Of a stretch of DNA of 64,000 nt, positions 10,930 to 32,523 are shown piece after piece. The notes below the pieces were generated by a model. That model had not been told where the DNA came from. It searched no databases and worked only from the letters and a program-made list of their open reading frames with translations. Each line of letters starts with the position of its first letter. Positions within the stretch are counted from its first letter, which is position 1. Source of the stretch: an uncultured Clostridia bacterium (GTDB lineage: Bacteria > Bacillota > Clostridia > Christensenellales > CAG-138); NCBI GenBank assembly GCA_946625575.1, contig CAMOTD010000006.1, positions 16,251 to 80,250 of the forward strand, written 5' to 3'. The position numbers were made by a program, and so were the translations under genes.

Positions 10930-11920
10930 AAAGCGCCATGCTCCTTTCCTCGATCACGGACGCGGGAATGCCGCTCCTCTTTGCGGTCAATATGAGCCTT
11001 ACGACCTCCGCCTCCCTCTCCCTTGCGAGGAGATACCCAACTATGGGCGCGGGGGTGTCGATATCGGATCTGTTGCCGGAGGCGAGCCCGATAAGATACT
11101 CGTCCCTTGCCTTTTCGACGGGGGCAACGGCGCCCGTCTTCAAATACTCGCTGAACGCGGCGCGGATGCGCTCCTTTACTTCGCTGATCTCAAGCGGGCT
11201 TTTGAGCAGAGCCGCCGCCTTCTCCTTCGAATCGGAAAGCGCCTCGCGAAAGCGCTTAAGCTCCGCCGCCGAGTATTCGCCCGTGGGAAGCAGCCTTTCG
11301 TCCGGCACGTCACGGAGTATCGCGATCAGGTTCGTAAAATCGGCGAGCGCGGAAAAGTACTTCTTTACAAACTGGTTTTTGAGCCCCATGGCGTATTTCA
11401 TATACGCGCAGTCAAGCTTTACCGAGACCGCCTGCGGATCGGCGGAACGGTACGTGTCGACGTCAAGCTCCTCGAGCGCCGCGGCGATCGTCTTCGGCAG
11501 CATGGAATAATCGCCCTTTTTGACGGCGGCTTTAAGCTTCTCCCCGTCATAGATACCGCCGAAGCCGAGCTCCGCCTTGTCAAGCTCCGCGCCCAAGAGA
11601 CGCAGCTTGTAGAGAAGCTTTATGTTCGTGATATCATGCCGCATACGGAAGACCTCGAGCACCGGGGCAAAGTGCCTCGGCATGAGCTCCTCCGTTACAG
11701 AGTATGCCTCGCCGAGCTCCGCGCGGATCATCGCCTCCGCCCGATCCGGCTCATCGGGATCGGACTTCATGCCATAGCCGGACTCCGAGAGTATCTTCAA
11801 ACACTCCTCGTAGTCCTTCGCGGCGGCAAGGCGGGAGACCGTCTCTCTCGTAAGGAGGCGTTTCTCTATAACGCGCAGTCTCGCTATGCTGTTTATAAGG
11901 CTTTCAGCCATAGTTCGCAC
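10922..11920 (-). CDS. atpC: V/A-type ATP synthase subunit C (d-type)
   Basis: 332 aa helical protein in the canonical operon position between E and F. Confidence 0.8.
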   Translation of the reverse strand: MRTMAESLINSIARLRVIEKRLLTRETVSRLAAAKDYEECLKILSESGYGMKSDPDEPDRAEAMIRAELGEAYSVTEELMPRHFAPVLEVFRMRHDITNIKLLYKLRLLGAELDKAELGFGGIYDGEKLKAAVKKGDYSMLPKTIAAALEELDVDTYRSADPQAVSVKLDCAYMKYAMGLKNQFVKKYFSALADFTNLIAILRDVPDERLLPTGEYSAAELKRFREALSDSKEKAAALLKSPLEISEVKERIRAAFSEYLKTGAVAPVEKARDEYLIGLASGNRSDIDTPAPIVGYLLAREREAEVVRLILTAKRSGIPASVIEERSMALYG

Positions 11921-17958: not shown

Positions 17959-17962
17959 ATGA

Positions 17963-19447
17963 TCATTCCTCTCCGGAGGTCATCAGCGCGCCCTTCAGCG
18001 CAAGCTCGTAATCGACGCCGTTTGCGGAAACGTAAACGTCATAAACCTTGTTGCCGAACGTATCGGTGTAAAGATCGGTGTAATACAGATATGCGGCGGG
18101 CATCGCCTCCACGTGGGAGACGCCGTCCGAAACGCCTTTAAGGGGACGATCGCCGTCGGCATAGATCAGCTTGCCCGTGGAATCGTAGTCCGCGAGGAAA
18201 AGGCATTTATCCTCCCCTGCGAGCACGGTATAGACCGTGTTTTTCGCAAGCTGCACCGCGGGAGCGCTGCCCTCGATATAATAGAGCCCGAGGTCGTAGC
18301 CCAAGCAGTAGAACCGTCCGCCGTCCCTTGACATATTGTAGCTGTAGACGTTTTTGCTTACGGTTTGCGCCGTCTTGGGATCGTTCGCCTGCATCATATA
18401 GAGCACGTTATCCGCCATAAGCACGGAGAGCCTTCCGCCGTCCTTCGTTAACGAGAAGCCGTACGCGCCGTTCGCAAGCAGCGCCGCGCGCCTGTTGGAA
18501 TCGACGTACCAGAGGCTGTAGATCTTGCGCGCGTTCGGATCTGAAGACGAGGTCTTGAAGCTGTAATACACGCCGCCGAAAACGCTCGAGCAATCCTTTA
18601 CGGCGCTGCGGCAGCTTTCGCCGCCCTGCATGGACTCGCACGCCGCTATTGCCGCAAACACGGACTCGTCCTTGACTATCGGCTTTGCCGAAGAGCCCTT
18701 GACGCTGTAATACGTGGTGCCGTTCATATCGAAGGTGACCTCGGTAAGGTCGCGGTTGAACTCAAGCTGGCCCGAAACTCCTTCGCCGATCCTTTTGACC
18801 TTTTTACCCTTTGCATAGCAGAGAGCGACCGAATCCGGCTCGACGTAATACCAGAATCCCGCGTCGTCGCCTATCGCCGTTATGTAAGCGTTTTCGCCCA
18901 ATACGCGGCTTTCGCCCGCGGTATGCGCGAAGGCGGTGTGATCCCCCGCCGCGTTCTTAACGGAATAGCCGACCGTCCTGCCGTCCGGCGAGATCACGAT
19001 CGACTCGATCGAAGCGGCGGCTTCGGGCTTGATATCCTCGAGCTGCCCGTCCGCATGATCGTATATATGCACCTCCGTCGCGGTGGTGAAGACTATCTTC
19101 TGCCCGTCGAGCGAAAGGAGCGCCCTTAATACTCCGGCGGGGTAGATCTTCACGACGCCTTCCCTGTCGACTCGGAAAAGCCCCGTGCCGGCGCGGACTA
19201 TGCCCACCGTGCCGTCGCAGGATATGAAGGAATCCACGTGCCCCGGGATCCTGTCCTCAAGCATTTCGGAATCCACGAGGAAGCGCGTCACGCCCTCCTC
19301 GTCGGCATAGAAATAATTGATATTATGCGCGTATTCCTTTGCTTCAGGGCGTTTCGACCCCTTTATGTCGAACACTATCGCGACGGCAGCGGCGATCAAA
19401 GCCGCCGCAAGTGCCGCAGCGAGTATCTTGACCCATGTCTTTTTCAT
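17963..19447 (-). CDS. N-terminally anchored repeat-rich (beta-propeller-like) protein, paralogue of 16531-17958
   Basis: Uncleaved-looking TM anchor ILAAALAAALIAAAVAIVF. It has SPDG-type repeats (ISPDGRTVGYSV) reminiscent of TolB/PD40 blades. It lies 4 nt from its paralogue. Confidence 0.5.
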   Translation of the reverse strand: MKKTWVKILAAALAAALIAAAVAIVFDIKGSKRPEAKEYAHNINYFYADEEGVTRFLVDSEMLEDRIPGHVDSFISCDGTVGIVRAGTGLFRVDREGVVKIYPAGVLRALLSLDGQKIVFTTATEVHIYDHADGQLEDIKPEAAASIESIVISPDGRTVGYSVKNAAGDHTAFAHTAGESRVLGENAYITAIGDDAGFWYYVEPDSVALCYAKGKKVKRIGEGVSGQLEFNRDLTEVTFDMNGTTYYSVKGSSAKPIVKDESVFAAIAACESMQGGESCRSAVKDCSSVFGGVYYSFKTSSSDPNARKIYSLWYVDSNRRAALLANGAYGFSLTKDGGRLSVLMADNVLYMMQANDPKTAQTVSKNVYSYNMSRDGGRFYCLGYDLGLYYIEGSAPAVQLAKNTVYTVLAGEDKCLFLADYDSTGKLIYADGDRPLKGVSDGVSHVEAMPAAYLYYTDLYTDTFGNKVYDVYVSANGVDYELALKGALMTSGEE

Positions 19448-19461
19448 CCGTTTTCCGTCCT

Positions 19462-20844
19462 TTACAAGAGTTTCTTCGTCTGGATATAGACGTCGCCGCT
19501 GCCGAGCGTGACGACTATATCGCCCGCGGACGCGTTTTCAAGCAGCCAATCGGATATCTCCTCAAAAGTCGGCACGTACAGGGCGTTACCGGTCGCCTCG
19601 TTTATGGCTTTGACCATATCGCGCGCGTGGACTGTGCCGTCGTCCTTCTCGCGTCCGGGATAGATATCGGGCACGAGCACCTTTTTGACGCCCTTGAAGC
19701 AGTCGCCCTGATGCCCGCAGAAGAGGGTCTTCGCCCTCGTGTAGCTGTTGCATTGGAACACGCAGTAAACGTCCTTATGCGGTGTGCGGAGCGCCGAATC
19801 GACCGCCGCCCTTATCTCCGCGGGATGGTGCGCGTAATCGTGGAACACCCTTACGCCGTTCCTTTCGCCGTAATACTCGAACCTGCGGCGGGTATTCTCG
19901 AAATGGGAGAGCGCATCCGCCGCCGTGTCAAAGTCCGTGCCGTGCGAGAGCGCGACCGCCATCGCCGCAACGGAATTGAGCATATTATGCCGCCCGGGCA
20001 CGTGAAGCGCGACTCTGCCGACCCTTTCGCCCCGGAACATGAGGTCGTAGGAGGGACAGCCGAACTCATCATACACGGCGTTTTCGGGATAATAATCGGG
20101 CCCGAACGCGGTATCGAGACCGTAGGTCAGCTCCGCGACCCTTCCCCTGTACTCCTCAAGCAGCCCGCGAACCCTTTCGTCGTCCGTGCAGCCGATGAAC
20201 ATGCCGCCCTCCGGGATGAGCGCGACGAACTTGCGGAATGCGTCGGTGATATGGTCGATATCCTTGAAATAATCGAGATGATCGTCGTCGATGTTGTTGA
20301 TCAGCGCGACGGTGGGACGAAGCGTAAGGAAGCTCTCCACGTACTCGCACGCCTCGGTAATGAACAGATCGTGAGAGCCGAGCCGAGTGCCGCCCTTCAA
20401 AAATTCGACGAAGCCGCCCACGTGGACGGTCGCGTCGAGACCGCCCTTCTCGGCGATAAGGGCGAGCATGGAGGTTATCGTGGTCTTGCCGTGGCAGCCG
20501 GCGATGCCGACGACGTTCCTGTAATTCTCACTCAGCCAGCCGAGCGCGACGGAACGCTCCATCTCGGGTATGCCGAGCTCCCTTGCCCTGACCCTCTCGG
20601 GATTGTCGGGCTTTATCGCGGCGGAATAGATGACGAGGTCGCTCCCGTCGACGTTCTCCGCCTTCTGCCCTATGGTCACGGGTATGCCGAGCTCAACGAG
20701 CCTTTCAGTAAATGGCGAAACGGAGCGGTCGCTCCCGCCGACCTCGTATCCCCTTGCGCGAAGTATCTGCGCCAGCCCGTTCATCGAGCAGCCGCCGACG
20801 CCGATAAGATGTATCTTTTTTACGTTTTCGAGTTTGCGATCCAT
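19462..20844 (-). CDS. murC: UDP-N-acetylmuramate--L-alanine ligase
   Basis: IHLIGVGGCSMNGLAQIL at the N-terminus, and the Mur ligase P-loop GIAGCHGKTTITSM. Confidence 0.9.
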   Translation of the reverse strand: MDRKLENVKKIHLIGVGGCSMNGLAQILRARGYEVGGSDRSVSPFTERLVELGIPVTIGQKAENVDGSDLVIYSAAIKPDNPERVRARELGIPEMERSVALGWLSENYRNVVGIAGCHGKTTITSMLALIAEKGGLDATVHVGGFVEFLKGGTRLGSHDLFITEACEYVESFLTLRPTVALINNIDDDHLDYFKDIDHITDAFRKFVALIPEGGMFIGCTDDERVRGLLEEYRGRVAELTYGLDTAFGPDYYPENAVYDEFGCPSYDLMFRGERVGRVALHVPGRHNMLNSVAAMAVALSHGTDFDTAADALSHFENTRRRFEYYGERNGVRVFHDYAHHPAEIRAAVDSALRTPHKDVYCVFQCNSYTRAKTLFCGHQGDCFKGVKKVLVPDIYPGREKDDGTVHARDMVKAINEATGNALYVPTFEEISDWLLENASAGDIVVTLGSGDVYIQTKKLL

Positions 20845-20972
20845 TTGAGCCTCCGAAAAAAGTCTTACTCAACTTTTAATTATATTCCATTTTGAGCAAA
20901 AAGGCAATAAGCCGCTGAAAAAAACAGCCCCTCTTTCAGAGAGCTGATCCGGATCCTGTCTTGTACGCGGTT

Positions 20973-21764
20973 TTACTCCGCCGCCTTCTTCCTCGGCAGG
21001 GCGAGCAGCACTATGCCGAGCGCGAAGAGGAATATCGAAATGAACTGGCTTGTGGATAAAGGACCCACGAAGCCGCGGTATGCGTCGCCGCGGAAGAACT
21101 CGAGTATGAAGCGGTAAACGGGGTATGTCACAAAGTAGAGTCCGAGGAGCTTCCCCTCGAGCTTTTTCTTTCTGAACAGCGCGAAGAGCACGAAGAACAG
21201 CGCGAAATTGAGCCCCGCTTCCACGAGCTGCACCGGGAAGCGCGAAACGCCGTTCGCGCCCTCCGCAATGGAATTATGATAGACGAAGCCGAATTTCGAC
21301 TCCACGCCGTAGCAGCAGCCGCCGAGGAAGCAGCCGATCCTGCCGAAGCCGTGGAAGAGCGGTATCGCAACTGCGCCGAGATCGTAATAGACCGATTTAT
21401 CCTTTTTGACCTTGACGGCAAGGTAGATCGCACCGGCGATCAAAGCGCAAATCAGCCCGCCGTAGAACACCGCGCCGCCGAATATGAACGAGAGCCGCGA
21501 AACGAGCTCCTTAAAAGAACCGATCGAGCCGAGCTCCTTTATGAGGAGTATGAGATCCTTTGCTCTGGTGAATGCGTAAAGAATGTGTCCGCCGATCAGC
21601 GCGCCGAGCCCGGCGAACAGGAGCATCATCTGCGTGCGCATATAATCCGCGCCGCGCTTTTTGCCGATCGCGGGGATGAGGAAAACGACCAGGATCGCGC
21701 CGATCCCCGCCATGAGCCCGTACGTCGAAACGTCCTTATTGAGTATGTGGATGCTGGGTAACAT
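20973..21764 (-). CDS. lgt: prolipoprotein diacylglyceryl transferase
   Basis: GFGRIGCFLGGCCYG and RFPVQLVEA motifs in a polytopic protein. Confidence 0.85.
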   Translation of the reverse strand: MLPSIHILNKDVSTYGLMAGIGAILVVFLIPAIGKKRGADYMRTQMMLLFAGLGALIGGHILYAFTRAKDLILLIKELGSIGSFKELVSRLSFIFGGAVFYGGLICALIAGAIYLAVKVKKDKSVYYDLGAVAIPLFHGFGRIGCFLGGCCYGVESKFGFVYHNSIAEGANGVSRFPVQLVEAGLNFALFFVLFALFRKKKLEGKLLGLYFVTYPVYRFILEFFRGDAYRGFVGPLSTSQFISIFLFALGIVLLALPRKKAAE

Positions 21765-21778
21765 TACGTTTTACCGCT

Positions 21779-21818
21779 TAAAAAAGCAGACACGGGGCAT
21801 CCCCCATGTCTGCCTTTT
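21779..21818 (-). terminator. intrinsic terminator after the DUF4190-like gene
   Basis: GCAGACA-CGGGG...CCCCA-TGTCTGC stem flanked by A5 and T5. Read on the minus strand it is followed by a U-run. Confidence 0.55.
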
Positions 21819-21826
21819 TGTTAAGA

Positions 21827-22129
21827 TCAATTGTTGAGGTTGCTGAGAGCCTCGGAACCGGTGCCGAGACATACAGTGCAGATCGTGCAGCCGAGGTATA
21901 CGACAAACAGGACGATACCGAGGATGAGACCTACGATGGAGAGGGTGCGACCGATCTTAGCCATCTTGGTGGGCTCGCCATTCGCCTCTGCAAGGGGCAG
22001 CGCCTTGTTGCCGAGAACGAGACCGATGATACCGGCGATGATACCGGGAATACCATAGCCCCAGCTAAGAACGATACTTGCAATACCCAGGATCAGGGTC
22101 GCAATAGACTTACCTTTTGAAGATTCCAT
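21827..22129 (-). CDS. small membrane protein (DUF4190-like)
   Basis: Two Gly/Ile-rich helices (LILGIASIVLSW..GIIAGIIGLVLG). The ATG at 22129 has AGGAGG 8 nt upstream. Confidence 0.6.
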   Translation of the reverse strand: MESSKGKSIATLILGIASIVLSWGYGIPGIIAGIIGLVLGNKALPLAEANGEPTKMAKIGRTLSIVGLILGIVLFVVYLGCTICTVCLGTGSEALSNLNN

Positions 22130-22163
22130 ACTATTATTCCTCCTAACCAAAGAATGTAAACAT

Positions 22164-22192
22164 ATTTTACCTCTAATTTCGCGTTATGTCAA
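22164..22192 (-). promoter_or_regulatory. sigma-A-like promoter for the DUF4190-like gene
   Basis: Read on the minus strand: TTGACA (22187-22192), 17-nt spacer, TAAAAT (22164-22169), inside an AT-rich spacer. Confidence 0.5.
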
Positions 22193-22384
22193 CCCAAAAA
22201 AATACCTTGTTTCAAATGGGTTTTCCTCTGGCGGCTAAAAATGTTAAAAAATATTTAACAAATTATGGAACCTTTTGGTATGCTCGTGCGTTATATAAGC
22301 GACGGAGGCAAATGCGAGGACGTCTCCGAGCTTGAGGGGAATTAGTCGCCCCCCTCAATGCAAAGTTGGTTTTCTTCCTTTCTG

Positions 22385-22421
22385 AAAAAGAAAACGGCAG
22401 TTTGCTAACTGCCGTTTTTTT
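22385..22421 (-). terminator. intrinsic (bidirectional-looking) terminator after the AI-2E transporter gene
   Basis: ACGGCAGTT-TGCT-AACTGCCGT stem flanked by an A-run and a T-run, immediately 3' of the stop at 22429. Confidence 0.65.
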
Positions 22422-22428
22422 ATTCCTT

Positions 22429-23619
22429 TCATTCCGCGGGTCTTGCCGCAGCTCCCATGCGTTCCTTCTTCTCTTTCTCCGCTTGCTTTTCCAGGTTCCT
22501 CTTCTTCACCCAATCGCCGAAGATGCGGTAGATGACGGCGGCGGTGGGGACCGCGACGAGCAGTCCGCCCACTCCGAACAGTCCGCCTGCGACGACTATC
22601 GCCGCAAGCACGAGCATGCCGGGGATGCCGACCGCGTCGCCGACGATGCGCGGATAGACGAGATTGTCGTCGATCGCCTGGATGCCGATTATCATCAGCA
22701 CGAACCACAGCGCGAGCCAGGGGTTATCCTGCCTTGTCATCAGTATTATCAGCGCGGAGGGCACGGTGCTCGCCCACGGACCGATTATCGGGATAAGCGC
22801 CGCGAGGCAGATGAACACCGATATGAGCTCCGGATAGGGCATCCGGAATATCCTCATCCCGATATAGCACAGCACGCCGATTATAATACAGCTTGTGAGC
22901 TGGCCCGTGATGTAGCGCTTGAAGGTGGTGTTCGCGTAGCTCACGTAATTCATGAAGCCCTTGAAATGCTCCGTCGGGATTATCGCAGCGGCGGTCTTCT
23001 CCACGAAGCGCTTTATCTTTTCCTTGCGGATGAGCGTATGCACGCTGATGACCATCGTTACGAGCACGCTGTAAAGCACGCCGATTATGCCCATCGTCAG
23101 GCGCGGGATCTTGGGGAGGAAGTTGACCGCAAAATCGTTTATCCGCTGCATGAGGTTAGCGAGCACCTTGTCGATTATGCTGTACGCCTCGGGGCTAAGA
23201 TTGAGCTCCTCCGTCCACTTGTTGACGTGCTCGACAATGAACGAGATATAGACGTCAAGATTCGAAACGAGGGTGACTATGCTTGCCACGACCTTCGGCA
23301 CGACGAGCGCCGAAACGAGGGCGACCACACCGAGCACGAGCACGTACGTTATAATGACGCAGATCGCCCTTGTGAGCCCGGGTTTTTTTGCCTTGAGTTT
23401 TTTGAAAACTCGGTCCTCGAAGAAGCTCATGGGGAGGTTCAGCACGAACGCCAGGCAGAGACCGTAGAGGATAGGCGCGACGACTTTGGCAAAAGTCGAC
23501 ACCGCGCTGCGCACCGGACCGAAGTGCTCCAATATCTCATAGAGCACGATTCCGAGCACGACGATCAGCGCAGCGGCTATCGCGATCCTTCTCTTTTCTC
23601 CTTTAAGCAGTGTTTTCAC
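22429..23619 (-). CDS. AI-2E family (PerM/YdiK-like) transporter
   Basis: 396 aa polytopic protein. The C-terminal GLFGVGGLLVAVP segment is typical of the family. Confidence 0.75.
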   Translation of the reverse strand: MKTLLKGEKRRIAIAAALIVVLGIVLYEILEHFGPVRSAVSTFAKVVAPILYGLCLAFVLNLPMSFFEDRVFKKLKAKKPGLTRAICVIITYVLVLGVVALVSALVVPKVVASIVTLVSNLDVYISFIVEHVNKWTEELNLSPEAYSIIDKVLANLMQRINDFAVNFLPKIPRLTMGIIGVLYSVLVTMVISVHTLIRKEKIKRFVEKTAAAIIPTEHFKGFMNYVSYANTTFKRYITGQLTSCIIIGVLCYIGMRIFRMPYPELISVFICLAALIPIIGPWASTVPSALIILMTRQDNPWLALWFVLMIIGIQAIDDNLVYPRIVGDAVGIPGMLVLAAIVVAGGLFGVGGLLVAVPTAAVIYRIFGDWVKKRNLEKQAEKEKKERMGAAARPAE

Positions 23620-23694
23620 GGCTCACCTCCGTTTGAAAAGCGAACGTGCGGTTAGTTTATACCGCCGCGCCGTTCGCCATACGGCAATTATGCG

Positions 23695-24327
23695 TCATTC
23701 GTTCCCGCGGAGACGCTTGTCCGCCCAAAGCTCGACCGTTATATAGGCGCTTATCGCGTCTATCGCGCGCTTGTTATGCCCGCCGTGCATTACGGCGAAA
23801 TCCGCACAGCGGATATATTTGGAAACGACTTCGTCATACCAGGGTTTTACGGTCGCAACGTACTGTTCCGCCACGCCATTTATCTCCCTGCCCCTTTCCT
23901 GCGTGTCGCGCAGCATCCTTCTCAAAAGGCACATATCGGGATCGACGTGCATATAGACCTTAAGGCTCATTCTGTCCATCAGTTCCTTATTATAAAAGAC
24001 GTGGATGCCCTCGAGTATAACGACGTCCGGCGGTTCAATGAGCTCCGTACTGTCCGCGCGGACGTGGTTGGCGTAATCATAGCCCTTCTTCGTGATGGGC
24101 TTCCCGGCTGCGAGGAGGTTCATGTCCTTTATCAGCTCGTCGTAATCGAATATCTCGGGATCGTCGTAATCGGTCGTCACCCTTTCGGCAAACGGTTTAT
24201 AGCTCTGATCCTTATAATAGCAGTCCTGCCCGATTATGACGGTATCGCAGTCGAGCGAATTCTTTATCTCCTTCGCAAGGGTGGATTTCCCGCTGCCCGA
24301 GGCGCCGCAGATGCCTATAATGATCAT
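23695..24327 (-). CDS. udk: uridine kinase
   Basis: IIGICGASGSGKSTLA P-loop. Length and remaining sequence fit Udk. Confidence 0.88.
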   Translation of the reverse strand: MIIIGICGASGSGKSTLAKEIKNSLDCDTVIIGQDCYYKDQSYKPFAERVTTDYDDPEIFDYDELIKDMNLLAAGKPITKKGYDYANHVRADSTELIEPPDVVILEGIHVFYNKELMDRMSLKVYMHVDPDMCLLRRMLRDTQERGREINGVAEQYVATVKPWYDEVVSKYIRCADFAVMHGGHNKRAIDAISAYITVELWADKRLRGNE

Positions 24328-24364
24328 ATCGAATACACTTTCCCGGTCAAAAAACCGATTTGAT

Positions 24365-24859
24365 TCATCTTCTGAACAGCTTTCGCCACACGCGCCATGC
24401 CGCGCTCTGGAGCTTGAACGATACGGGGCGGATATGCCTCGTCGCGACCATCCATGCCGAGTAGAGCTTATACCCTGGCTCCTTCATATCGGACGCCCTG
24501 CCGCGGCTGACGAAGCCGGTCACGACGCCGATCACGGCCTCCCTTTTGACGGGCGGATCGCATTCGGTGCGCTTATCGCCGCAAAACACGTATTTATCCC
24601 TGCGCCGATCGACCGAAACGAGCCGGTGCAGGACGTACTTTTTTTCATCGTCCGCGCCCGAAACGAAGAGCGCGACCGTCCCGCGCTTTATTTGCTCCGG
24701 CGGATATCCGAGGGTGACGCTGTCGCCGTTTGCGCGGAGCATCGGCAGCATGCTCCCCCCTTTTGGAGTAAAGCTCACCGTGCCGCCTTCTTCAAGACGG
24801 GAGCGGATCAGCCCCTCCATATCGGAAAGGGACGCGCTTACCTTTCGCTGCTCTGCCAT
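24365..24859 (-). CDS. S24/S26-family serine peptidase-like protein
   Basis: GGSMLPML resembles the G-x-SM-x-P nucleophile box of signal-peptidase/LexA-type peptidases. A later GDKR could supply the general-base Lys. 164 aa. Confidence 0.55.
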   Translation of the reverse strand: MAEQRKVSASLSDMEGLIRSRLEEGGTVSFTPKGGSMLPMLRANGDSVTLGYPPEQIKRGTVALFVSGADDEKKYVLHRLVSVDRRRDKYVFCGDKRTECDPPVKREAVIGVVTGFVSRGRASDMKEPGYKLYSAWMVATRHIRPVSFKLQSAAWRVWRKLFRR

Positions 24860-24871
24860 AAAGCCGGCCCG

Positions 24872-25135
24872 TTAAACGAGCAGCCCCTCGGCGGAGAGCT
24901 TCTTTACAAACCTTTCTATGCCTGCGCGGGCGGTATCCTCGTCCACGTCATATTCCGCGAGCATCGCCTTTACGAGCGAAGCCTCGTCCCTGTCCTCCTC
25001 AAGGAGCTTCCAAAGGAACGCCGCGGTATCGTTAAGGGTTATCATGCCGTTGAAGTCGAGCGAAGTCTTCCCCGCGGGGACGACTATCGTCGCGTCGGCG
25101 ACCTGTCTTAAAACAAAGCCCTCTTTTATCTTCAT
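24872..25135 (-). CDS. PqqD-family (RiPP recognition element-like) protein
   Basis: 87 aa. The pattern FVLRQVADATIVVP...MITLNDTAAFLWKLLE....LVKAMLAEYDVD......IERFVKKL is typical of PqqD-like peptide chaperones. The ATG at 25135 has AGGAG upstream. Confidence 0.65.
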   Translation of the reverse strand: MKIKEGFVLRQVADATIVVPAGKTSLDFNGMITLNDTAAFLWKLLEEDRDEASLVKAMLAEYDVDEDTARAGIERFVKKLSAEGLLV

Positions 25136-25146
25136 CGTGTTTTCTC

Positions 25147-25836
25147 CTAACAAGTTTTCATTACGCTGTATGCAAGACGGGCGGCTTCCTCGTCCGGTCT
25201 GCATCTTAAAACGAATACGGGGACCGTCGATACGAGCCTGTCCACCGTTTCGAGAAGCTCCGTCATGCGCTCCCTGCTGATCCTTCGGACGGTCTGGGGT
25301 ATTATCCTGACAGCCGCCTCCTTCGCAGAGAGCCTTTCGATCGAATTATCCCCCGCCTGCTCGATAAACGCTATCGCCTGAACGGGCAGGGTCTCATCCC
25401 TGTTCAGATCGTACTTCCCGCTCCATGGGGTGCCGGAGGCGAGGAAGCCGTTTTCGCTCCGTGTGAGCGCGGGCTTATCGTCGTTAAGGATATAAGCCCC
25501 CTCGAAGCATTTGAGCCAGAGCCCGGTATGGGTGGACTTTCCCGCGCCGGAATCGCCGGAGAAGAGATACGCCCTGCCGTCGAGCGCCGCGGCGGAGGAA
25601 TGAAGCATCATACCGCCCCTCTTGATGAGCTCGAAATAAAACTTCGTGCCCGAGGCAAGATACCTCGCTTCCGCGTCCTTGAGCCCGGTGTGGAGCATAC
25701 ATTCCGCAGCCTCTTCATCCGTTACCCTGACGGTAAAATCGGGGATGCGCCCGGTCACGCGGTATTTTTCCGCACGATCGAGAAAAACGTCCCCGCAGCC
25801 TTCGGCGTCGAAAACAAAACCCGCAGCCGAGTACAA
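25147..25836 (-). CDS. HPr-kinase-C-terminal-domain-like P-loop protein
   Basis: LFSGDSGAGKSTH Walker A in the context found in HprK-related kinases. TTG start preceded by GGGGTGAG. It is the first gene of a tightly packed minus-strand operon. Confidence 0.55.
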   Translation of the reverse strand: MYSAAGFVFDAEGCGDVFLDRAEKYRVTGRIPDFTVRVTDEEAAECMLHTGLKDAEARYLASGTKFYFELIKRGGMMLHSSAAALDGRAYLFSGDSGAGKSTHTGLWLKCFEGAYILNDDKPALTRSENGFLASGTPWSGKYDLNRDETLPVQAIAFIEQAGDNSIERLSAKEAAVRIIPQTVRRISRERMTELLETVDRLVSTVPVFVLRCRPDEEAARLAYSVMKTC

Positions 25837-25871
25837 GCGCTCACCCCCCCCGATTCAAAGGATCAATATTC

Positions 25872-25900
25872 ATTATATCATTTTATTTCTTCGCGCACAA
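25872..25900 (-). promoter_or_regulatory. sigma-A-like promoter of the HprK-like/PqqD/S24/udk/AI-2E operon
   Basis: Read on the minus strand: TTGTGC (25895-25900), 17-nt spacer, TGA-TATAAT (-10 at 25872-25877). Confidence 0.45.
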
Positions 25901-25959
25901 TAGCTTTTTCGCACAGTATCTGTTATAATAAGCCCAACGATACCAACGGAGGCAGTATA

Positions 25960-26826
25960 GTGACAGGCGCTTCAATAAAAAGGATATTGCCCGTTCTTAT
26001 GGCGGCGGCGATGCTTTTTGCCGCCGGCTGCGGGAAAAAGCCCTCGGGGGACGAGCCGGATGCGATAATAGATATCGGCTTGCCCACCCTGTCGCCTGCG
26101 CCGGAGGGCACCGACGAGCTTTTGCCGACGCCGACCCCCGCGCCCGATACGCTTGAGGGAAGGATCCTTTCCGGGCTGGTTTATCCGCTTAACGGCGGCG
26201 AGCCGACCGGGCTCTCCTTCAAGGCGGAGAGCGTCGACCTTGACGGCGACGGAGATCCCGAGGAGATCGCCGTTTCGGACGTTGACGGAGGTCCCGCGCT
26301 CACGGTTGACGGCGAGGCGTTCCTCGATATAGGCACGAAGGTGAGCCTTGCTTCGCTCGACGGGAAAAACATTTTCTTAATTTCGGAGACCCCCGGGAAG
26401 GAAGGTTTCTTCGTATTCCATCCCGATAAGGAAGGCAACCTCTTCTGCCGTCTTTACGCCATAGCCCGTAAGGGCTCCGCGGAGGGGCTCGTTACCCCGG
26501 CGCCAGTCGAGGACCTTATACGCGGCGGGCTCGACGTGATGCTTCACGATCCGCTTTTGTATTCGGCGGTCGACGGCGCAAAGCGCACCGTGCGCCTTGA
26601 TATGGACGGCGACGGGAATAACGAGGAGATCGTTTTCGACAGCGAAACGCTTTCGATAAACGGCACGGAGGACCGCCTGATACTGACCACCACCATGCCC
26701 CGCTTCGTTTTCGATCCCGAGCGGGATACCATAGTCCTTTACGGTTCCGCGGGCGACACCGCGATACGCCTTTGGGTGGAGAACGGAAGCGTGAAATTCG
26801 ACCAAAGCTATACGACGCTGCTGTGA
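25960..26826 (+). CDS. lipoprotein with Asp-rich calcium-binding-type (FG-GAP/VCBS-like) repeats
   Basis: The GTG at 25960 has GGAGG upstream. Lipobox LFAAGC. Repeats DLDGDGDPEEIAVSD and LDMDGDGNNEEIVFD. The upstream part of the track ORF is antisense to the HprK-like gene. Confidence 0.6.
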   Translation: MTGASIKRILPVLMAAAMLFAAGCGKKPSGDEPDAIIDIGLPTLSPAPEGTDELLPTPTPAPDTLEGRILSGLVYPLNGGEPTGLSFKAESVDLDGDGDPEEIAVSDVDGGPALTVDGEAFLDIGTKVSLASLDGKNIFLISETPGKEGFFVFHPDKEGNLFCRLYAIARKGSAEGLVTPAPVEDLIRGGLDVMLHDPLLYSAVDGAKRTVRLDMDGDGNNEEIVFDSETLSINGTEDRLILTTTMPRFVFDPERDTIVLYGSAGDTAIRLWVENGSVKFDQSYTTLL

Positions 26827-26856
26827 TCTCAGGCAGCCGGCAAAAACAATAAGAAA

Positions 26857-26886
26857 CCGAGGATGGATCTCCATCCCCGGTTTTTT
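26857..26886. terminator. imperfect hairpin plus T-run between convergent genes
   Basis: CCGAGGATGGA..TCCATCCCCGG followed by T6. Confidence 0.4.
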
Positions 26887-26968
26887 ATTTCCCAATTCGT
26901 TTTCTCGGCTGAAAACCTGATTCTCCTTATGCGGATACACCCTTCCCCGTTCTTGTTTTTTCGTCGCT

Positions 26969-29095
26969 TCAGTTCACCTTTAATATCCGGGCGGCGCCGT
27001 TCGACCAAACCGTCTCCATTTGATTGAAGAAGTTGTAATCGATATTGTAGCTTCCCATCTCCCAGACGCTTATCAGCACGTAGTCGACGCCGTACTCCTT
27101 CGCGCAGTCGTCAAAGCAGGAGTACGGATCCTCATACATCTGCTGTACACGGTAATATCTTTCGGTGAAATCAACGCCGTGAAAGAAGAGGAACACGGGC
27201 GAGCCGCAGACAATGCTGCGCCCGGTCAGCATCGCGACCGCGTTGTTGTGGTTCGTCGCGGTGAGTATTATATCGTCTGGCGCGGTGTTCTGTTTTATCC
27301 AGTCAGCCGCTTCGACAAGCTCCGGCGAGACGGTCTGGTAGCCCGTCTCTTTATAGACCGGCTTGAGTCCCTCAAGCTCCCAATGATCGCCCGAGACGTA
27401 TTCGCGCGCTATGGTCATAACGCCGGAGAGCGTCGCCGCCGCTATTATAACGGCAAGCACGAGATCGCAGGCAAGCCGCCTTCCGAGGGGGGCTTTTTTA
27501 TTTTCCTGCCCGATCTCCTCCTGCACGGCGTCCGCGCGGCGGAGCCTTGCCCATGCCCTTATTATAAGGTCGGCGGTCAAGCCGCAGGTGAAGGCGAACC
27601 ATACGAAGAGGAGCTTGTTGTTATCGTAATTATTCGGCTGGAACACGACGAATTCGCAGATCAGCCAGATCGGGAGCACCGAAGCGAAGAACAGCTTGTG
27701 TTCCTTCTTCGCGGCGAGGAACGCGGGCAGCATGAGTATGAATATCAGGCCCATGTTCTTTATGTAGAACCAAAGCCAGGAATCCGATTCGTTGCACCAG
27801 TTAAGATGGAACTTCACGAACCCGCCCGCGCTGCTCTGCTTGAACGTGAAAAGGAAGAGCTGCGGAGAGGCGAACAGCATCGTTACCGCGCCGAACAGCA
27901 GGAACCATGCGAGGTTCCGCCAGCCTCCCTTATCCTTTATGCCGCAGCTCGGCATACAGATCTGCTTTATGAACAATATCCATATAAGCGCGGCGCTGAT
28001 GATGCCGAGCGCGAAGAAGCTGTGAGTATGCACGAGCGGCATAGCTCCCGCGAGCACGCCGAGACAGATGAAGAGCCTTTTCTCCCGGTCGAACGCGGCG
28101 CGCCGGAGCATCTGGAGCGCCGGGAACAGCAGCGCCCAGCCGAAGAGGGTAGCCCTTTGGGGGATGAGCATATCGGCGATGGTATTCACCCAGCGCAGAC
28201 CCAGATCGACGTAATTGGTCGGCGTTTTGTACCAGCCGTCAAGAAGCCTCCTGCCCATGTCGAGCGCGGAAGCATAGTTGATATTCGCATTTACCCCGTA
28301 AACCTCGCTGAGCCAGTTCTCCCATGCTTCGGGCGTCGTGAGAGAAGCATAGGTCTTCGCGTTGTCGAAGAAATAGGCAAAGCCGAAGCCGCCTCCGATA
28401 AAGAAGAACGCCGTTGCGAGACACGCCGACGACGAACGCCCGAACCAGTCCTCAAAGAAAAGATACACGCCGAGTACGACCATAATATAGGCGTAGAGCG
28501 CGGGAAGCAGCGCCGCAAAGCGCAGGGATGCTCCGAGAGTATAGAATGTGGAGCTGACGCTGTCGCAGAGGAAAGGGTAGCCGAGAAGCGTATCCGGCAG
28601 TATGGAGTACATCGGCGGGAACGATTTCTGCACGGAGATGCTCGTGATAAAGCCGAGGTGCATGCAAAGATCGCCGTAGGTGCACTGACCGACGTGGAGC
28701 GACCCGTCGGACGCCGTCCTGATAAAATGATTATTCATAAGAAGGAGCCCGACGATCACGAGCGGGAGCGCGGTCAGTATGAGCCAGATATCCTTCTTTT
28801 TATCAAAGCCGCCCGTTCTCGCCCGTTTTCTTCCGAGAACAAGGCATAGGACGCCCGCCGCGAGCGCCGCGGCAAGCGATATAAGCTGCGCGGCAAGCGT
28901 GAAATCCATAATGAACGCGAAAAGCGCAGGCAGCCAGAGGAGCATGACGAGCCCGGCAGTCATACCGAAGAGCAGCTGCTTTGCGAACCTGTCCTTCGGA
29001 AAAACGAGCCTTGAAATAAAAAAGCCCGAAACGGCGAACGCCGAAATGTAAAGAACGGAAAGCGTACCCATTAGCAGCGGGTATAGACCTGCCAT
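26969..29095 (-). CDS. large polytopic membrane protein with C-terminal extracytoplasmic domain (possible GT-C-type glycosyltransferase)
   Basis: About 15 hydrophobic helices over roughly 550 aa, then a soluble C-terminus of roughly 150 aa. The ATG at 29095 has AAGGAGG upstream. The architecture resembles ArnT/PMT-type enzymes, but I see no diagnostic motif. Confidence 0.4.
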   Translation of the reverse strand: MAGLYPLLMGTLSVLYISAFAVSGFFISRLVFPKDRFAKQLLFGMTAGLVMLLWLPALFAFIMDFTLAAQLISLAAALAAGVLCLVLGRKRARTGGFDKKKDIWLILTALPLVIVGLLLMNNHFIRTASDGSLHVGQCTYGDLCMHLGFITSISVQKSFPPMYSILPDTLLGYPFLCDSVSSTFYTLGASLRFAALLPALYAYIMVVLGVYLFFEDWFGRSSSACLATAFFFIGGGFGFAYFFDNAKTYASLTTPEAWENWLSEVYGVNANINYASALDMGRRLLDGWYKTPTNYVDLGLRWVNTIADMLIPQRATLFGWALLFPALQMLRRAAFDREKRLFICLGVLAGAMPLVHTHSFFALGIISAALIWILFIKQICMPSCGIKDKGGWRNLAWFLLFGAVTMLFASPQLFLFTFKQSSAGGFVKFHLNWCNESDSWLWFYIKNMGLIFILMLPAFLAAKKEHKLFFASVLPIWLICEFVVFQPNNYDNNKLLFVWFAFTCGLTADLIIRAWARLRRADAVQEEIGQENKKAPLGRRLACDLVLAVIIAAATLSGVMTIAREYVSGDHWELEGLKPVYKETGYQTVSPELVEAADWIKQNTAPDDIILTATNHNNAVAMLTGRSIVCGSPVFLFFHGVDFTERYYRVQQMYEDPYSCFDDCAKEYGVDYVLISVWEMGSYNIDYNFFNQMETVWSNGAARILKVN

Positions 29096-29154
29096 GTTTT
29101 CCTCCTTAAACAAAAAGCCCCGGCGCGGAAAAAACTCCGCATGCCGAAGCGAGC

Positions 29155-29694
29155 TCACATGAATAACGAGAGCCTTGTCAGCGGCGCGACGCGCAGACGC
29201 GTTTCGCCGTAGATCCTGCCGTAGGGGATAAGATAACGGTCCAGCGCGGAGACCGCGGGGCGTTTATCCGGCAGAAGCAGTACCGAATCCTCCGGAACGG
29301 AGCAGTCGAGCTCGGCATATTCGGACCATTCGCCGCCGTATGCGCTTTCGTCGATAAGCTCGCCGTCAAGATACGCTTTGCCGTTCCTGACCTGATAAAG
29401 CGAGCCGCCCTTTGCCGCTACGCGGTAAAAGGCATAGCCCGAGCCCAGATCCGCGCGGACGATATCGCCCACGGAATAATCTGCGATGAAGCGGGAGACT
29501 CTGTCAACGAGCAGGAGCTCGCCCGTATTGAGCTCCGCAACGTTCTCGTCGTTCACCTCAACGGGAACGAGTATCACCTTGAACAGTATGAAAACAAGGA
29601 AAAAGCACAAAAGAAGTATGACGGCGATATCCGCAGCCCTTCTTGCCGCGGATTCCGCCCTCGTATATGTGCTTCTGACCGTGTATTCCTCCAT
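29155..29694 (-). CDS. signal peptidase I-like protein lacking the catalytic Ser/Lys (pseudo-peptidase)
   Basis: N-terminal TM anchor. The GDIV box and the C-terminal PDKR..S.LDR box align with S26 boxes C and E. The SM-x-PT box reads NDENVAEL and the KR box reads YRV. Confidence 0.5.
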   Translation of the reverse strand: MEEYTVRSTYTRAESAARRAADIAVILLLCFFLVFILFKVILVPVEVNDENVAELNTGELLLVDRVSRFIADYSVGDIVRADLGSGYAFYRVAAKGGSLYQVRNGKAYLDGELIDESAYGGEWSEYAELDCSVPEDSVLLLPDKRPAVSALDRYLIPYGRIYGETRLRVAPLTRLSLFM

Positions 29695-29697
29695 CCG

Positions 29698-30354
29698 TCA
29701 GCGGATCCCCCTTGCGTTTTTGAACGGATACATAACGCCGTGCACCCTGCCGATCACGTCATAGAGCGGTATCGCGCCGACGTCTCTCGAGTCCTTCGAG
29801 TTGGTGCGGTGATCGCCCATCACGAACACGCAGCCCTCCGGCACGGTATAGACGCCGTTAACAACGCCCTCGCACCTGACGGGGATATACGTCAAGCCCT
29901 TGTCTATCAGCATGGTCTTGCCGTACGCGGATTCGTCGATCTGAACGCCGTCGACGTAAACGGAACTGCTGAACGATACGATATTCGTTTCGGGATCGAC
30001 GTTCCTTTCGGTCCTTACCTCCACGGTCTGCCCGGCGGTGGCTACGACCCTTTTAACGAACGCGGTATTGCCCATCTCGGGGAAATGGACGATCACAACG
30101 TCCCCCGCTTTGGGCTTTGAAAACCAATAGCTCACCTTTTCGACTAAGCACCTTTCGCCGTTCTGCAGCGTGTTCATCATGGAGGGACCGTCCACCTTGA
30201 CGGGCTCCAAAACGAAAGCGCGCACCGCGAGCAGCACCAGCACGAGTCCAACTATGAAGATAAGAAAATCGATATTCGAAGCCGCCCTGTAGCCGGGCTC
30301 CTTTTCATGCAGCGTCTCGCATACCTTGCGGGTGTCCTTATCGTTCCTTGTCAC
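29698..30354 (-). CDS. lepB: signal peptidase I
   Basis: All S26 boxes are present: DGPSMMNTL, GDVVIV, VKRVVATAGQTV, GDHRTNSKDSRD. Confidence 0.88.
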   Translation of the reverse strand: MTRNDKDTRKVCETLHEKEPGYRAASNIDFLIFIVGLVLVLLAVRAFVLEPVKVDGPSMMNTLQNGERCLVEKVSYWFSKPKAGDVVIVHFPEMGNTAFVKRVVATAGQTVEVRTERNVDPETNIVSFSSSVYVDGVQIDESAYGKTMLIDKGLTYIPVRCEGVVNGVYTVPEGCVFVMGDHRTNSKDSRDVGAIPLYDVIGRVHGVMYPFKNARGIR

Positions 30355-30547
30355 TTTGATCCTCCGAAATCTTTTTTGCGGCCCTCAGGAAATCGCCCCT
30401 GTCGAGCATCACGATCCTGCCGCAGCCCAAGCATTTTATCTTTATATCGGCGCCCGTCCTCACGATCTCCCATTCGTTCGATCCGCAGGCATGGGGCTTT
30501 CGCATTATCACTCGGCGGCCGAGTTCTATACTTTCGTTATCTATCAT
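30338..30547 (-). CDS. DUF951-family small zinc-ribbon-like protein
   Basis: 69 aa with KPHACGSNEWEIVRTGADIKIKCLGCGR, typical of DUF951. It overlaps lepB by 17 nt. Confidence 0.6.
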   Translation of the reverse strand: MIDNESIELGRRVIMRKPHACGSNEWEIVRTGADIKIKCLGCGRIVMLDRGDFLRAAKKISEDQSDKER

Positions 30548-32523
30548 CAGTCGTTGCCCACCCAGCGCAGGAAGAAGTACAGCCTTGCCCCGAGCTTTGC
30601 GTCGTAATGATTGTCGCCGCAGGTCACGAGAGTCATGAACCTGTCGTTCGTGCAGACGCTCGCGTCGAAATCAAGCGTGTTCTTGCCGAGCTGATACTCG
30701 AGCCACCCCTGCCTGTCCTGCTCGTTCATGGCGTTGAAGGTGTACGGCCAGCAGGTGTTGAAGAGCTGCGAGGAATCATCCGCGCGGCGGAACGCGCCCT
30801 CCTCGTACATAGCCCAGACCTCCCAATACCCGGTCTGCCCGTAGGTGTTTATGCACCACACCCTGTTCTTGTATTCGCCGAGCTTCGAAGCGCTGTCCTG
30901 GATATTGTGCAGCTCATGGAACATTGTGCCGGACTGCCTTGAATTGTGCCCGGTTATGACGATGTTCCTGTTGGGTCTCGACCAGTAGAAATAGATACTG
31001 CCGCGTCCCGTGCTCGCCTTATTGATGTTGTGATCGTTGTAATACCAGTTCTGCCCGTACATGATCGGGTAGGAGATATTGGTCCCCTCGAGCGTGATAT
31101 AGCCGAGCGCATCGGGATTGAGACGCCTTGCGTCCGCAAGCTCGTTCATATAGGGATAGGTCTTCGCGTACTGATCCGCGGCGCCCGTGCCCTCCGCCTG
31201 AGCGGTGATCACGTCGATATCGTTCACGTCGATCGAGCCGGGCTTCGAGGTATCCGCCACGGCGTCCGCGGCGCGCAGGAACGCGCCCTTAAGCTGCGTC
31301 TTCTTTGCGGCATGATCCTTGACGAGCTTGACGTCCGTATCGTCGATAGCTCCGTCGCCGTTGACGTCGCCGATGAGCACGCAGACGGCGCCCTTCGCTT
31401 CGCTGGTTACGGGATCCGCCCAGCTGATCTCCCTGCCCGTGGCGACGGGCGCGCCGTCAAGCTCAGCGCCGGGAGTGAGCCCCAGCAGCCAGCCCTCCTC
31501 GGAAACGTAGGGGAGGAGCCTCCAGCCGGTCACGTTCACCGCAAGGTGAGAGTCGTCGCCGAAGCCCTCGCAGGTGCCGTCGCCATGCAGCACGACGGCG
31601 TGTGTTTTGGAGGCGGAAACGGAGTAAACGCCCGTCGTCTCCCCCTCGATGAAATCGGCGTCGGTAAAGAGCCTGCCGGTGCTGTCCACGCCGTAGGTGG
31701 CGCCCTCTGCGGCGGTTATGAACGCGATATCGCTCCAATCGAAGCTCTTCGCCTCCCCGCCGGAAACGGGATACGCCTTGACCGTGCCATCATAATACAG
31801 CACGGAGAAATGATCCTCCGCCGCGGCGATATCGATAACGGGCTCCTCATTTACATCCTCGGAAAGCTCCAGCCCCGCGGCAACGACGTAACATTCCTCA
31901 TTAAGACCGAGGGTATAGTCGGCGGCGGCGGCTATCTTTGCAATGCCCGTCCATTCCGCGACGGCGCACTGACCGGCGTTATCCTCGCCGAGCGCGGTCA
32001 CGGAGCCTCCGCTGACAAGCCCGACAATATGCGCGCGTCCCATGGCGATATCGGTCACGCCCGTCCAATCGGCGGTGCCGGTAAAGGGCGCGTTCCCGTC
32101 CTCGGTTATCGCGGCGAAGGAAATGCTTCCGTCCCGCATGAGGGCGGCGGTCACGCTGCCGTTTGACGCGAGCTTGTTCACTTTGATCCAGTCGAAGATA
32201 AGATTCTGACCGGAGACCGCTTCTCCCATGAACCGTATGCTTCCGTCCGAAGCGACGCCGTAGGTGCCGGTGGGCACGGCGTAAACGTATCCCATCAGGT
32301 CGCGCTTTACGGGAGCGGCGGATTCCCTGCTCTTTTCCGTGGGCGCGGCGGTGGACTCGTCCGTGGCGGGGACGTCGGTATCTGCCGCCTCCGTAGGCAG
32401 GGGCTCGTCCCCGTGAGCGGGGCCGCAGCTGCATCCGGAGCAGCCCGCTCCGAGCACGAACGCCGCCGCGAGCGTCAAAAGAAGCGCGGATTTCAGGATT
32501 ATTTTAATGGATTTGTTTTTCAT
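30547..32523 (-). CDS. lipoprotein with RCC1-like repeats, dockerin-like EF-hand module and C-terminal class-B sortase domain
   Basis: Lipobox VLGAGC. RCC1-like GRAHIVGLVSGGSVTALGEDNAGQC. Dockerin-like GDVNGDGAIDDTDVKLVKDH. SrtB-like NPDALGYITLEGTNISYPIMYG...VITGHNSRQSGTMFHEL...TLVTCGD...ARLYFFLRWV. Confidence 0.6.
   Translation of the reverse strand: MKNKSIKIILKSALLLTLAAAFVLGAGCSGCSCGPAHGDEPLPTEAADTDVPATDESTAAPTEKSRESAAPVKRDLMGYVYAVPTGTYGVASDGSIRFMGEAVSGQNLIFDWIKVNKLASNGSVTAALMRDGSISFAAITEDGNAPFTGTADWTGVTDIAMGRAHIVGLVSGGSVTALGEDNAGQCAVAEWTGIAKIAAAADYTLGLNEECYVVAAGLELSEDVNEEPVIDIAAAEDHFSVLYYDGTVKAYPVSGGEAKSFDWSDIAFITAAEGATYGVDSTGRLFTDADFIEGETTGVYSVSASKTHAVVLHGDGTCEGFGDDSHLAVNVTGWRLLPYVSEEGWLLGLTPGAELDGAPVATGREISWADPVTSEAKGAVCVLIGDVNGDGAIDDTDVKLVKDHAAKKTQLKGAFLRAADAVADTSKPGSIDVNDIDVITAQAEGTGAADQYAKTYPYMNELADARRLNPDALGYITLEGTNISYPIMYGQNWYYNDHNINKASTGRGSIYFYWSRPNRNIVITGHNSRQSGTMFHELHNIQDSASKLGEYKNRVWCINTYGQTGYWEVWAMYEEGAFRRADDSSQLFNTCWPYTFNAMNEQDRQGWLEYQLGKNTLDFDASVCTNDRFMTLVTCGDNHYDAKLGARLYFFLRWVGND

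Follow-up and report, generated by a model that had tools for sequence, protein, structure and literature searches.

A kinase, recognition-element and peptidase gene trio in an uncultured Clostridia bacterium as a likely counterpart of the core of linear polyphosphorylated peptide pathways

What is a set of peptide-modifying genes doing at the head of a housekeeping operon, with no peptide gene beside it? The stretch of DNA analysed here (the window) comprises 64,000 nucleotides of contig CAMOTD010000006.1 from an uncultured Clostridia bacterium. On its minus strand lie three closely packed genes that encode a P-loop kinase (K), a discrete recognition element (RRE) of the PqqD family for peptides that are made on ribosomes and modified after translation (RiPPs) (B), and a signal-peptidase-like protein (S). 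An initial annotation of this DNA proposed that the trio recognises, phosphorylates and cleaves a peptide or protein encoded elsewhere, in a combination that had not, as far as it was aware, been characterised. We think it likely that the trio is the K-B-S core of a Clostridial counterpart of the linear polyphosphorylated peptide (LPP) pathway, in which an RRE-guided kinase and a leader peptidase would act on a ribosomal peptide encoded outside the window.

The LPP pathway was described by Popov et al. (Nat Commun, 20 May 2026; PMC13381572), who found it through archaeal-type signal peptidases I (SpIs) adjoining RREs in Bacilli and expressed a cluster heterologously. The lppA-K-B-S-D-N clusters, seen in Paenibacillus alginolyticus among other Bacilli, encode a precursor, an HprK-like kinase, an RRE, an SpI-like peptidase, an MsbA-like pump and an NTP-transferase, and they make linear peptides carrying several phosphates. 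LppB binds a YxxP motif in the leader, where its Asp70 hydrogen-bonds the Tyr, and LppK adds up to four phosphates to Ser3 of the core. LppS, a SipW-like enzyme with the catalytic residues S29/H68/D93, cuts the leader after T-1 only in the presence of LppB, and unphosphorylated LppA precursor is cleaved poorly. The final product and its function are not known (PMC13381572).

The window trio resembles this system in several respects. It has the same K-B-S gene order, a kinase with the predicted fold of HprK and phosphoenolpyruvate carboxykinase (PEPCK), a discrete PqqD-type RRE encoded 12 nt 5' of the peptidase gene, and a soluble archaeal-type SpI-like peptidase with Ser, His and Asp in the expected places; as in LPP clusters, no macrolactam cyclase accompanies it. 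Because gene order and chemistry match the LPP cassette, the combination must be counted as already characterised, the work on LppK, LppB and LppS having appeared in May 2026, and on this point the initial annotation no longer holds. Its recognise-phosphorylate-cleave logic, by contrast, is the one demonstrated experimentally in the homologous LPP system (PMC13381572).

How well does each protein bear out this comparison? The kinase drew no match from our local copy of Pfam, a copy that either was without PF27840 or missed it. Its best NCBIfam match was ScmC (TIGR04249; E = 1e-9, 38.3 bits against a cutoff of 125), and it also matched HprK_rel_A (TIGR04352; E = 0.003, 16.5 bits against a cutoff of 200), both below cutoff. 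The ScmC family PF27840 is, however, precomputed on a 99%-identical relative (P0001) and on every kinase homologue listed. Three motifs do not vary among 94 homologues: the Walker A motif GDSGAGKST-H (a GxxGxGKSTH P-loop), NDDKP and GTPWSGK. With the AlphaFold2 model (mean predicted local distance difference test score, pLDDT, 95.6), the best Foldseek matches in the PDB were ATP-dependent PEPCK (E = 1e-6) and HprK/P (E = 3e-5); the family profile found nothing significant among the sequences of solved structures (HprK, E = 0.95). The model thus predicts a P-loop enzyme of PEPCK/HprK fold.

The RRE is a PqqD-family protein by Pfam (PF05402, E = 2e-19). It is 44% identical to an RRE that the LPP study places beside SpIs of cluster 4 in its sequence similarity network (SSN) (E = 1e-21) and 41% identical to one beside cluster 9 (E = 3e-15); pairwise identity to LppB is 30% over 53 residues (E = 0.18). 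The study centred on SSN cluster 1, with 126 SpIs and 80 of 9,173 Bacilli genomes. Cluster 4 (Desulfosporosinus, Dehalobacter, Anaerocolumna) and cluster 9 (uncultured Ruminococcus SCH01704.1, Firmicutes CAG:56) appear in its supplement, where they are entered as 'RRE others' and lack both an LPP RRE and a TIGR04352 kinase; the study took them no further (PMC13381572).

The peptidase shows the same affinities. Its best NCBIfam match was the archaeal-type signal peptidase I family (TIGR02228; E = 1e-6, below cutoff), and its GxSMLPM (Ser36), LHR (His78) and GD motifs, invariant in the family, read as the Ser/His pattern of SipW/Sec11-type enzymes. In a MAFFT alignment with LppS, Ser36 and His78 share columns with the catalytic S29 and H68, and D101 stands opposite D93, a position at which relatives have D or E. 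The family HMM (hidden Markov model) matched LppS at E = 3e-24. Pairwise, the window protein is 24% identical to LppS (E = 0.23), 29% to the cluster-9 SpI SCH01704.1 (E = 3e-15) and 34% to a cluster-4 SpI (E = 6e-5). In a fold search its AlphaFold2 model (pLDDT 86.7) matched SpsB, the LexA C-domain, SipA and UmuD', all weakly, and a profile search against the sequences of solved structures returned nothing under E = 1. The protein shares with SipW, Sec11 and archaeal type I signal peptidases (S26B) the SM-P / HR / GD motif pattern, with His as general base. Unlike them it has no N-terminal membrane anchor, has a basic and helical C-terminus, is predicted to be cytoplasmic, belongs to a family of about 150-165 residues and is encoded beside an RRE. 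An exhaustive profile search recovered 4,775 cluster representatives at E <= 1e-10; these small, soluble SpI-like proteins make up a large family. The three family assignments of the initial annotation therefore stand at the level of the superfamily or the fold: PqqD for the 87-residue protein, an HprK-C-like P-loop protein (ScmC family; PEPCK/HprK fold by Foldseek), and an S24/S26 serine peptidase.

We searched for the company that such kinases keep in other genomes. A scan with one genome per species found kinase relatives in at least 585 species-level genomes, of which the best 80 were fetched. Nearly all of these 80 carry a Clostridia label (Oscillospiraceae, Acutalibacteraceae, Ruminococcus and other 'Clostridia bacterium' metagenome-assembled genomes), and their hosts are mostly uncultured Oscillospirales-type organisms of gut and rumen. 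Open reading frames (ORFs) were clustered over 84 non-redundant loci (numbered with an L below) with ±5-6 kb of flank, and counts were taken over the 52 loci flanked by 3 kb or more on each side. Across the 84 loci, the only recurrent partners of the kinase were PqqD, the SpI-like peptidase, an ATP-binding cassette (ABC) exporter with fused transmembrane and nucleotide-binding domains, and NTP_transf_5 (PF14907). The PqqD gene usually lies directly 3' of the kinase gene. Within 5 kb of the kinase, PqqD was found at 39/52 and the peptidase at 29/52 loci; among the other partners, a precursor was found at 17/52, the exporter at 15/52 and the NTP-transferase at 8/52. The recurring order is precursor-kinase-RRE-peptidase-(ABC)-(NTP_transf_5), and the bare trio is the commonest architecture (11/52). 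A neighbourhood survey of this kind had been suggested by the initial annotation; the genes do co-occur outside this genome, and chance juxtaposition is rejected on the PqqD and peptidase counts.

The survey also bears on where the trio came from. The exporter of the relatives has the domain layout of the MsbA-like LppD, and NTP_transf_5 is likewise shared with LPP clusters. The initial annotation had seen no precursor or nucleotidyltransferase with the trio, which does not hold for the relatives: they carry precursor, exporter and NTP_transf_5, and the trio is therefore better described as a reduced copy of a larger cassette than as a self-standing new system.

Could the trio instead be a set of lasso-peptide accessory genes, the kinase and B1 protein of a paeninodin-type pathway? 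The top PDB matches of the RRE family profile are indeed lasso B1 proteins (TbiB1, E = 2.5e-9; TfuB1, 6e-8; PbaB1, 1e-7), with LppB (9x8z) at about 1e-5 (1.2e-5). In lasso pathways HprK-like kinases and B1 proteins act together, the kinase being leader-dependent and RRE-assisted and working on the linear precursor (PMC10368454). Phosphorylated lasso pathways (paeninodin, pseudomycoidin and Bsf, with genes A, B1, B2, C, D, K and N) have in common with the trio a B1-type RRE and an HprK-like kinase and, with the relatives' cassette, an ABC exporter and NTP_transf_5. They differ by a lasso cyclase and the Cys protease B2, for which we found no counterpart here; a serine SpI-like enzyme fills the slot of the leader peptidase, and the product is therefore expected to stay linear. 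The neighbour clusters of the 84 loci show no recurring cyclase, radical-SAM enzyme or B2-type protease and no family beyond the partners named above, and neither a cyclase nor a B2-type protease appears in the Pfam-labelled flanks of 11 relatives. Since a cyclase and a B2 protease are missing from these neighbourhoods, the lasso explanation was rejected, and we regard it as exceedingly improbable. In the window itself, the absence of a radical-SAM enzyme and of a lasso cyclase or B2 protease, already reported from the sequence, held up in a Pfam scan of the ORFs covering positions 16531-32523.

Two further systems combine a P-loop protein of the HprK superfamily with a protein of the PqqD family, namely SynChlorMet (ScmC/ScmD, TIGR04249/TIGR04248) and HPr-rel-A (TIGR04352/TIGR04353). 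SynChlorMet cassettes combine ScmC and ScmD with radical-SAM/SPASM partners. The window differs from both in scoring far under their cutoffs (38 against 125 bits and 16.5 against 200), and no radical-SAM/SPASM partner is conserved near the trio.

Directly 5' of the kinase gene, relatives of the trio carry small ORFs of two families, with good ribosome-binding sites. The leader of the main family reads M-K-K-x-Y-x-K-P-E-(I/L)-E-(I/V)-x-x-F-x-x-(D/E)-(D/E)-(I/V)-(I/L)-T-x-S. The cores, short and acidic, contain much Gly, Ser and Thr and have aromatic ends such as ...GWY, ...EGWM, ...GDGYIDFDDIL and ...DW(K/Q/E). Examples are L046:9693-9863, L040:8958-9077, L082:7097-7459, L093:7814-8123 and proteins P0181-P0300; main-family precursors often come as tandem pairs drawn from different sub-families. 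A precursor profile searched against 5.8 billion proteins found 129 called genes of 32-72 residues at E <= 10, about 100 of them at E <= 1e-3 and none with a name, and the leader consensus is seen in those of the matches that were listed. A look-up starting from the peptides gave the same arrangement, precursor(s)-kinase-RRE-peptidase-(ABC)-(NTP_transf_5). A metagenome search with a narrower precursor alignment returned 11 short contigs, and a kinase gene follows 3' of the precursors on 6 of the 8 with usable downstream sequence. The main-family precursors matched no family in Pfam or NCBIfam, and the literature searched made no mention of their sequence strings. The roughly 130 members form a previously unlisted precursor family with YxKPE(I/L)E leaders.

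These leaders share with those of LPP precursors the YxxP motif and a conserved Thr/Ser pair near the junction. The patterns differ otherwise: YxKPE(I/L)E(I/V)xxF..(D/E)(I/V)(I/L)TxS in the relatives, against YxxPxVLxHQxIxFETxxS in LPPs. The T-x-S at the leader end resembles the FET|xxS junction of LppA (T at -1, S the phosphorylation site), and such a junction would fit the rule of small residues at -3 and -1 for signal peptidases. Cleavage may alternatively fall after the F-x-x element.

The second small-ORF family occurs at six low-GC loci (for example MATNYDGLDALIMPMSTASA...; L022:1510-1653, L023:9722-9835, L027:9609-9734, L028:1257-1370, L036:9743-9910, L062:9608-9718). It has a ..YDxLxxxIxPM(S/T).. 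motif in place of YxxP, and lies 5' of kinase-RRE-ABC-NTP_transf_5 cassettes without an SpI-like peptidase. At L041:5714-6115, a stop-free frame of 133 codons matches the precursor and leader HMMs and may represent a precursor of unusual length; the 70-80 residues shown are SNE/SDE repeats with ..APLFSYSNFL at their end.

Other variations on the cassette were seen among the relatives. A single 540-residue ORF at L018:2427-4049 fuses the SpI-like peptidase domain to NTP_transf_5. At five loci (L011, L013, L019, L024, L032) the peptidase gene follows the kinase gene directly, with a PqqD gene neither between them nor nearby, and at four of these (L011, L019, L024, L032) a conserved 230-residue membrane protein is encoded just 5' of the pair. 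Small genes for four-helix bundles (23S_rRNA_IVP / bAvd in Pfam) interrupt the cassette at L093:8433-8798 and 10811-11035 and at L094:8339-8683, separating precursor from kinase gene and peptidase from NTP-transferase gene. At many loci, no more than about 20 nt separates the precursor or kinase gene from the end of a gene for a large secreted surface protein (SLH-like, Big_2 or cohesin-like, the longest of 2,414 residues) (L096:5133-7982, L099:739-7983, L031:8996-9976, L038:8820-9965, L066:8874-9938, L040:10176-11276). Some of their C-termini resemble peptide cores (..GIEDGGEI, ..GGIEDGGEF, ..IGGDGSVDLGDYIGGNN). ScmC-type kinase genes also stand by themselves at 10 of the 52 well-flanked loci, where neither RRE nor peptidase was detected in fetched flanks of up to 10 kb. 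Their contexts are housekeeping ones: DHFR-kinase-UDG-PolA at L030, L037 and L079, and an MFS gene at L015, L047, L055 and L080; L054, L059, L068 and L081 are further solitary cases.

By homology to the Bacilli enzymes, a mechanism can be proposed for the trio. The PqqD-type RRE would bind the leader of a ribosomally made peptide, and the PEPCK/HprK-fold kinase would put at least one phosphate on a Ser close to where the core begins. The RRE would then present the junction of leader and core to the soluble Ser/His/Asp signal-peptidase-like enzyme, which would remove the leader. We infer these activities and their order from the LPP system. The substrate of the window trio would be a peptide encoded outside these 64 kb, and a linked precursor, exporter and NTP-transferase would have disappeared from the cassette here or never have belonged to it.

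Five observations weigh against an LPP-like role. First, the kinase is ScmC-type (PF27840) and falls far short of TIGR04352, the type found in Bacilli LPP clusters (16.5 bits against the cutoff of 200). Second, the window and the ±7-10 kb around ten relatives of its clade yielded no precursor-like ORF. Six-frame translations were searched with two precursor HMMs, a leader-only HMM and the HMM of a 120-member family, and a [WYF]xxP regular expression was applied with a filter for conservation across loci; small ORFs filtered by ribosome-binding site, lying between about 1.3 kb upstream and 2.3 kb downstream of the start of the kinase gene, likewise gave no precursor in the window or its clade. 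A linked YxxP-leader precursor is present in about one third of the more distant relatives. Third, neither a cassette-type ABC exporter nor NTP_transf_5 was found among the ORFs of the 64 kb window, so that on HMM, regular-expression and ORF searches the initial report of no precursor and no nucleotidyltransferase in this DNA is upheld. Fourth, the RRE is no nearer to LppB than to lasso B1 proteins, in pairwise comparison and by family profile, and judged by these scores rather than by a tree it falls outside the monophyletic LppB clade. Fifth, residue 72 of the RRE (24920-24922) is Gly at the position of the Tyr-anchoring Asp70 of LppB.

Identity of the window RRE and peptidase to LppB and LppS is only about 24-30%, the two proteins group with SSN clusters 4 and 9, and the host organisms are gut and rumen Clostridia rather than Bacilli. 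Because the RRE and peptidase match LppB and LppS only distantly, and the RRE profile favours lasso B1, we file the trio as a Clostridial variant, which appears to work like the LPP K-B-S genes yet lies outside the LppB and LppK lineages of Bacilli.

The altered pocket invites a second explanation, that the trio has been repurposed and acts in the cell, phosphorylating and then cleaving a larger protein or an unlinked peptide without YxxP, in connection with housekeeping. Gly at the Asp70 position is found in all 10 RREs of the window's clade and in 6 others, 16 in total (among them the window, L005, L007-L010, L012, L021, L033, L051, L076, L085, L087, L089 and L091). None of the 16 has a recognisable linked precursor, compared with 25 of the 50 other RREs, counts that ignore phylogeny. 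This suggests that Gly-type RREs bind a different leader or have substrates encoded elsewhere. The remainder of the hydrophobic cleft is conserved, as is the Asn that fixes the Pro kink of the leader, which speaks against repurposing.

Gene order can be read in the same two ways. In the window's clade (L005, L007-L010, L087-L092; kinases 50-79% identical to the window's), a divergent lipoprotein gene is followed by K-B-S-(ABC)-udk-AI-2E...murC, with a recognisable precursor in none, and this order is kept even across relatives with only 50-60% kinase identity. The exporter is lacking in the window and in L091/L092, while sister lineages retain it. Together with the solitary ScmC-type kinases in housekeeping contexts, these features would suit a trio long fixed in a housekeeping operon (udk, AI-2E, murC) and redeployed from a secreted RiPP to an intracellular, RRE-guided phosphorylate-then-cleave system. 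Linkage to udk may, however, be mere stable synteny, no candidate protein substrate was identified, and unlinked precursors are the simpler explanation. We judge repurposing unlikely, and such a redeployment within the operon no less so, and retain the reading of the trio as an LPP-like core with its substrate encoded elsewhere.

A third explanation, that the trio is a decaying, non-functional remnant of an LPP-like cluster, takes its support from the same losses: the A, D and N genes are absent from the window, and sister lineages keep the exporter. Yet all three ORFs are intact and retain every residue invariant in their families, and the bare trio is, as noted, the commonest arrangement. 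Between the window and L087 (77-90% identical), the ratios of nonsynonymous to synonymous substitution rates (dN/dS) are 0.16, 0.14 and 0.18 for the three genes. All three are under purifying selection. A degenerate remnant was rejected on these ratios, and we consider it highly improbable.

The layout of the operon is given in Table 1. A reading of the sequence confirmed the three minus-strand ORFs of the initial annotation, with gaps of 11 nt (kinase to RRE), 12 nt (RRE to peptidase) and 37 nt (peptidase to udk), and bore out its operon continuing into udk and an AI-2E transporter gene. The TTG start of the kinase gene has GGGGGGTGA just 5' of it, and the N-terminus lines up with the Met start of homologues. 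Since the single strong terminator-like hairpin sits after the AI-2E gene, it is plausible that the trio, udk and the AI-2E gene form one transcription unit; the promoter listed 5' of the kinase gene is a weak candidate. We assign udk to the same operon as the trio and infer no pathway role for it. The AI-2E gene keeps its place 3' of udk in clade relatives, and the transporter may or may not be tied functionally to the trio.

Table 1 Features of the trio and its operon in the window (positions are those of the window).
Feature	Position	Strand	Details
LppK-like P-loop kinase, ScmC-type	25147..25836	-	229 aa, TTG start
LppB-like discrete RRE, PqqD family	24872..25135	-	87 aa
LppS-like soluble archaeal-type signal-peptidase-I homologue, predicted leader peptidase	24365..24859	-	164 aa
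udk (uridine kinase)	23695..24327	-	PF00485, E = 3e-37; NF004018, E = 3e-63
AI-2E family transporter, last operon gene	22429..23619	-	PF01594, E = 3e-50
Terminator-like hairpin closing the operon	22391..22418	-	12-bp stem, 5 G-C pairs, then T-run
Possible promoter TTGTGC-17 nt-TATAAT, 5' of kinase gene	~25867..25895	-	read by eye; under consensus-scan threshold

Beyond the operon, a divergent lipoprotein gene (25954-26826, plus strand) encodes a lipobox, LFAAGC, and DGDG repeats and has no Pfam match. It keeps its place beside the kinase gene throughout the window's clade. The lipoprotein was considered as a conceivable substrate of the trio; there is neither motif nor Pfam match to go by, and only its synteny is conserved. 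On the trio's strand, 3-7 kb upstream, two adjoining genes for canonical S26 signal peptidases I (29155-30354) gave one weak and one strong Pfam match. Further along the same strand, 30547-32523 encodes a 658-residue protein with sortase and dockerin matches.

Two aspects of the system are new. One is a Clostridial branch with an ScmC-type kinase, a different RRE clade and new precursor families; the other is a form without precursor and exporter, embedded in a housekeeping operon. LPPs have so far been placed in 80 of 9,173 Bacilli genomes; with kinase relatives in at least 585 species-level genomes, and with most of the 52 well-flanked loci pairing the kinase with RRE and peptidase, the same chemistry would extend to a far larger and uncultured host range. 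The roughly 130 unlisted precursors, with their short acidic cores and aromatic ends, can be used directly for synthesis, heterologous expression and metabolomic searches. The recurrent siting of the cassette by genes for large surface proteins (SLH, Big_2, cohesin-like) offers a functional lead, as it echoes the association with capsule loci noted for Bacilli LPPs (PMC13381572). With its altered RRE pocket, the bare trio is also a natural test case for the evolution of RRE specificity and of substrate linkage.

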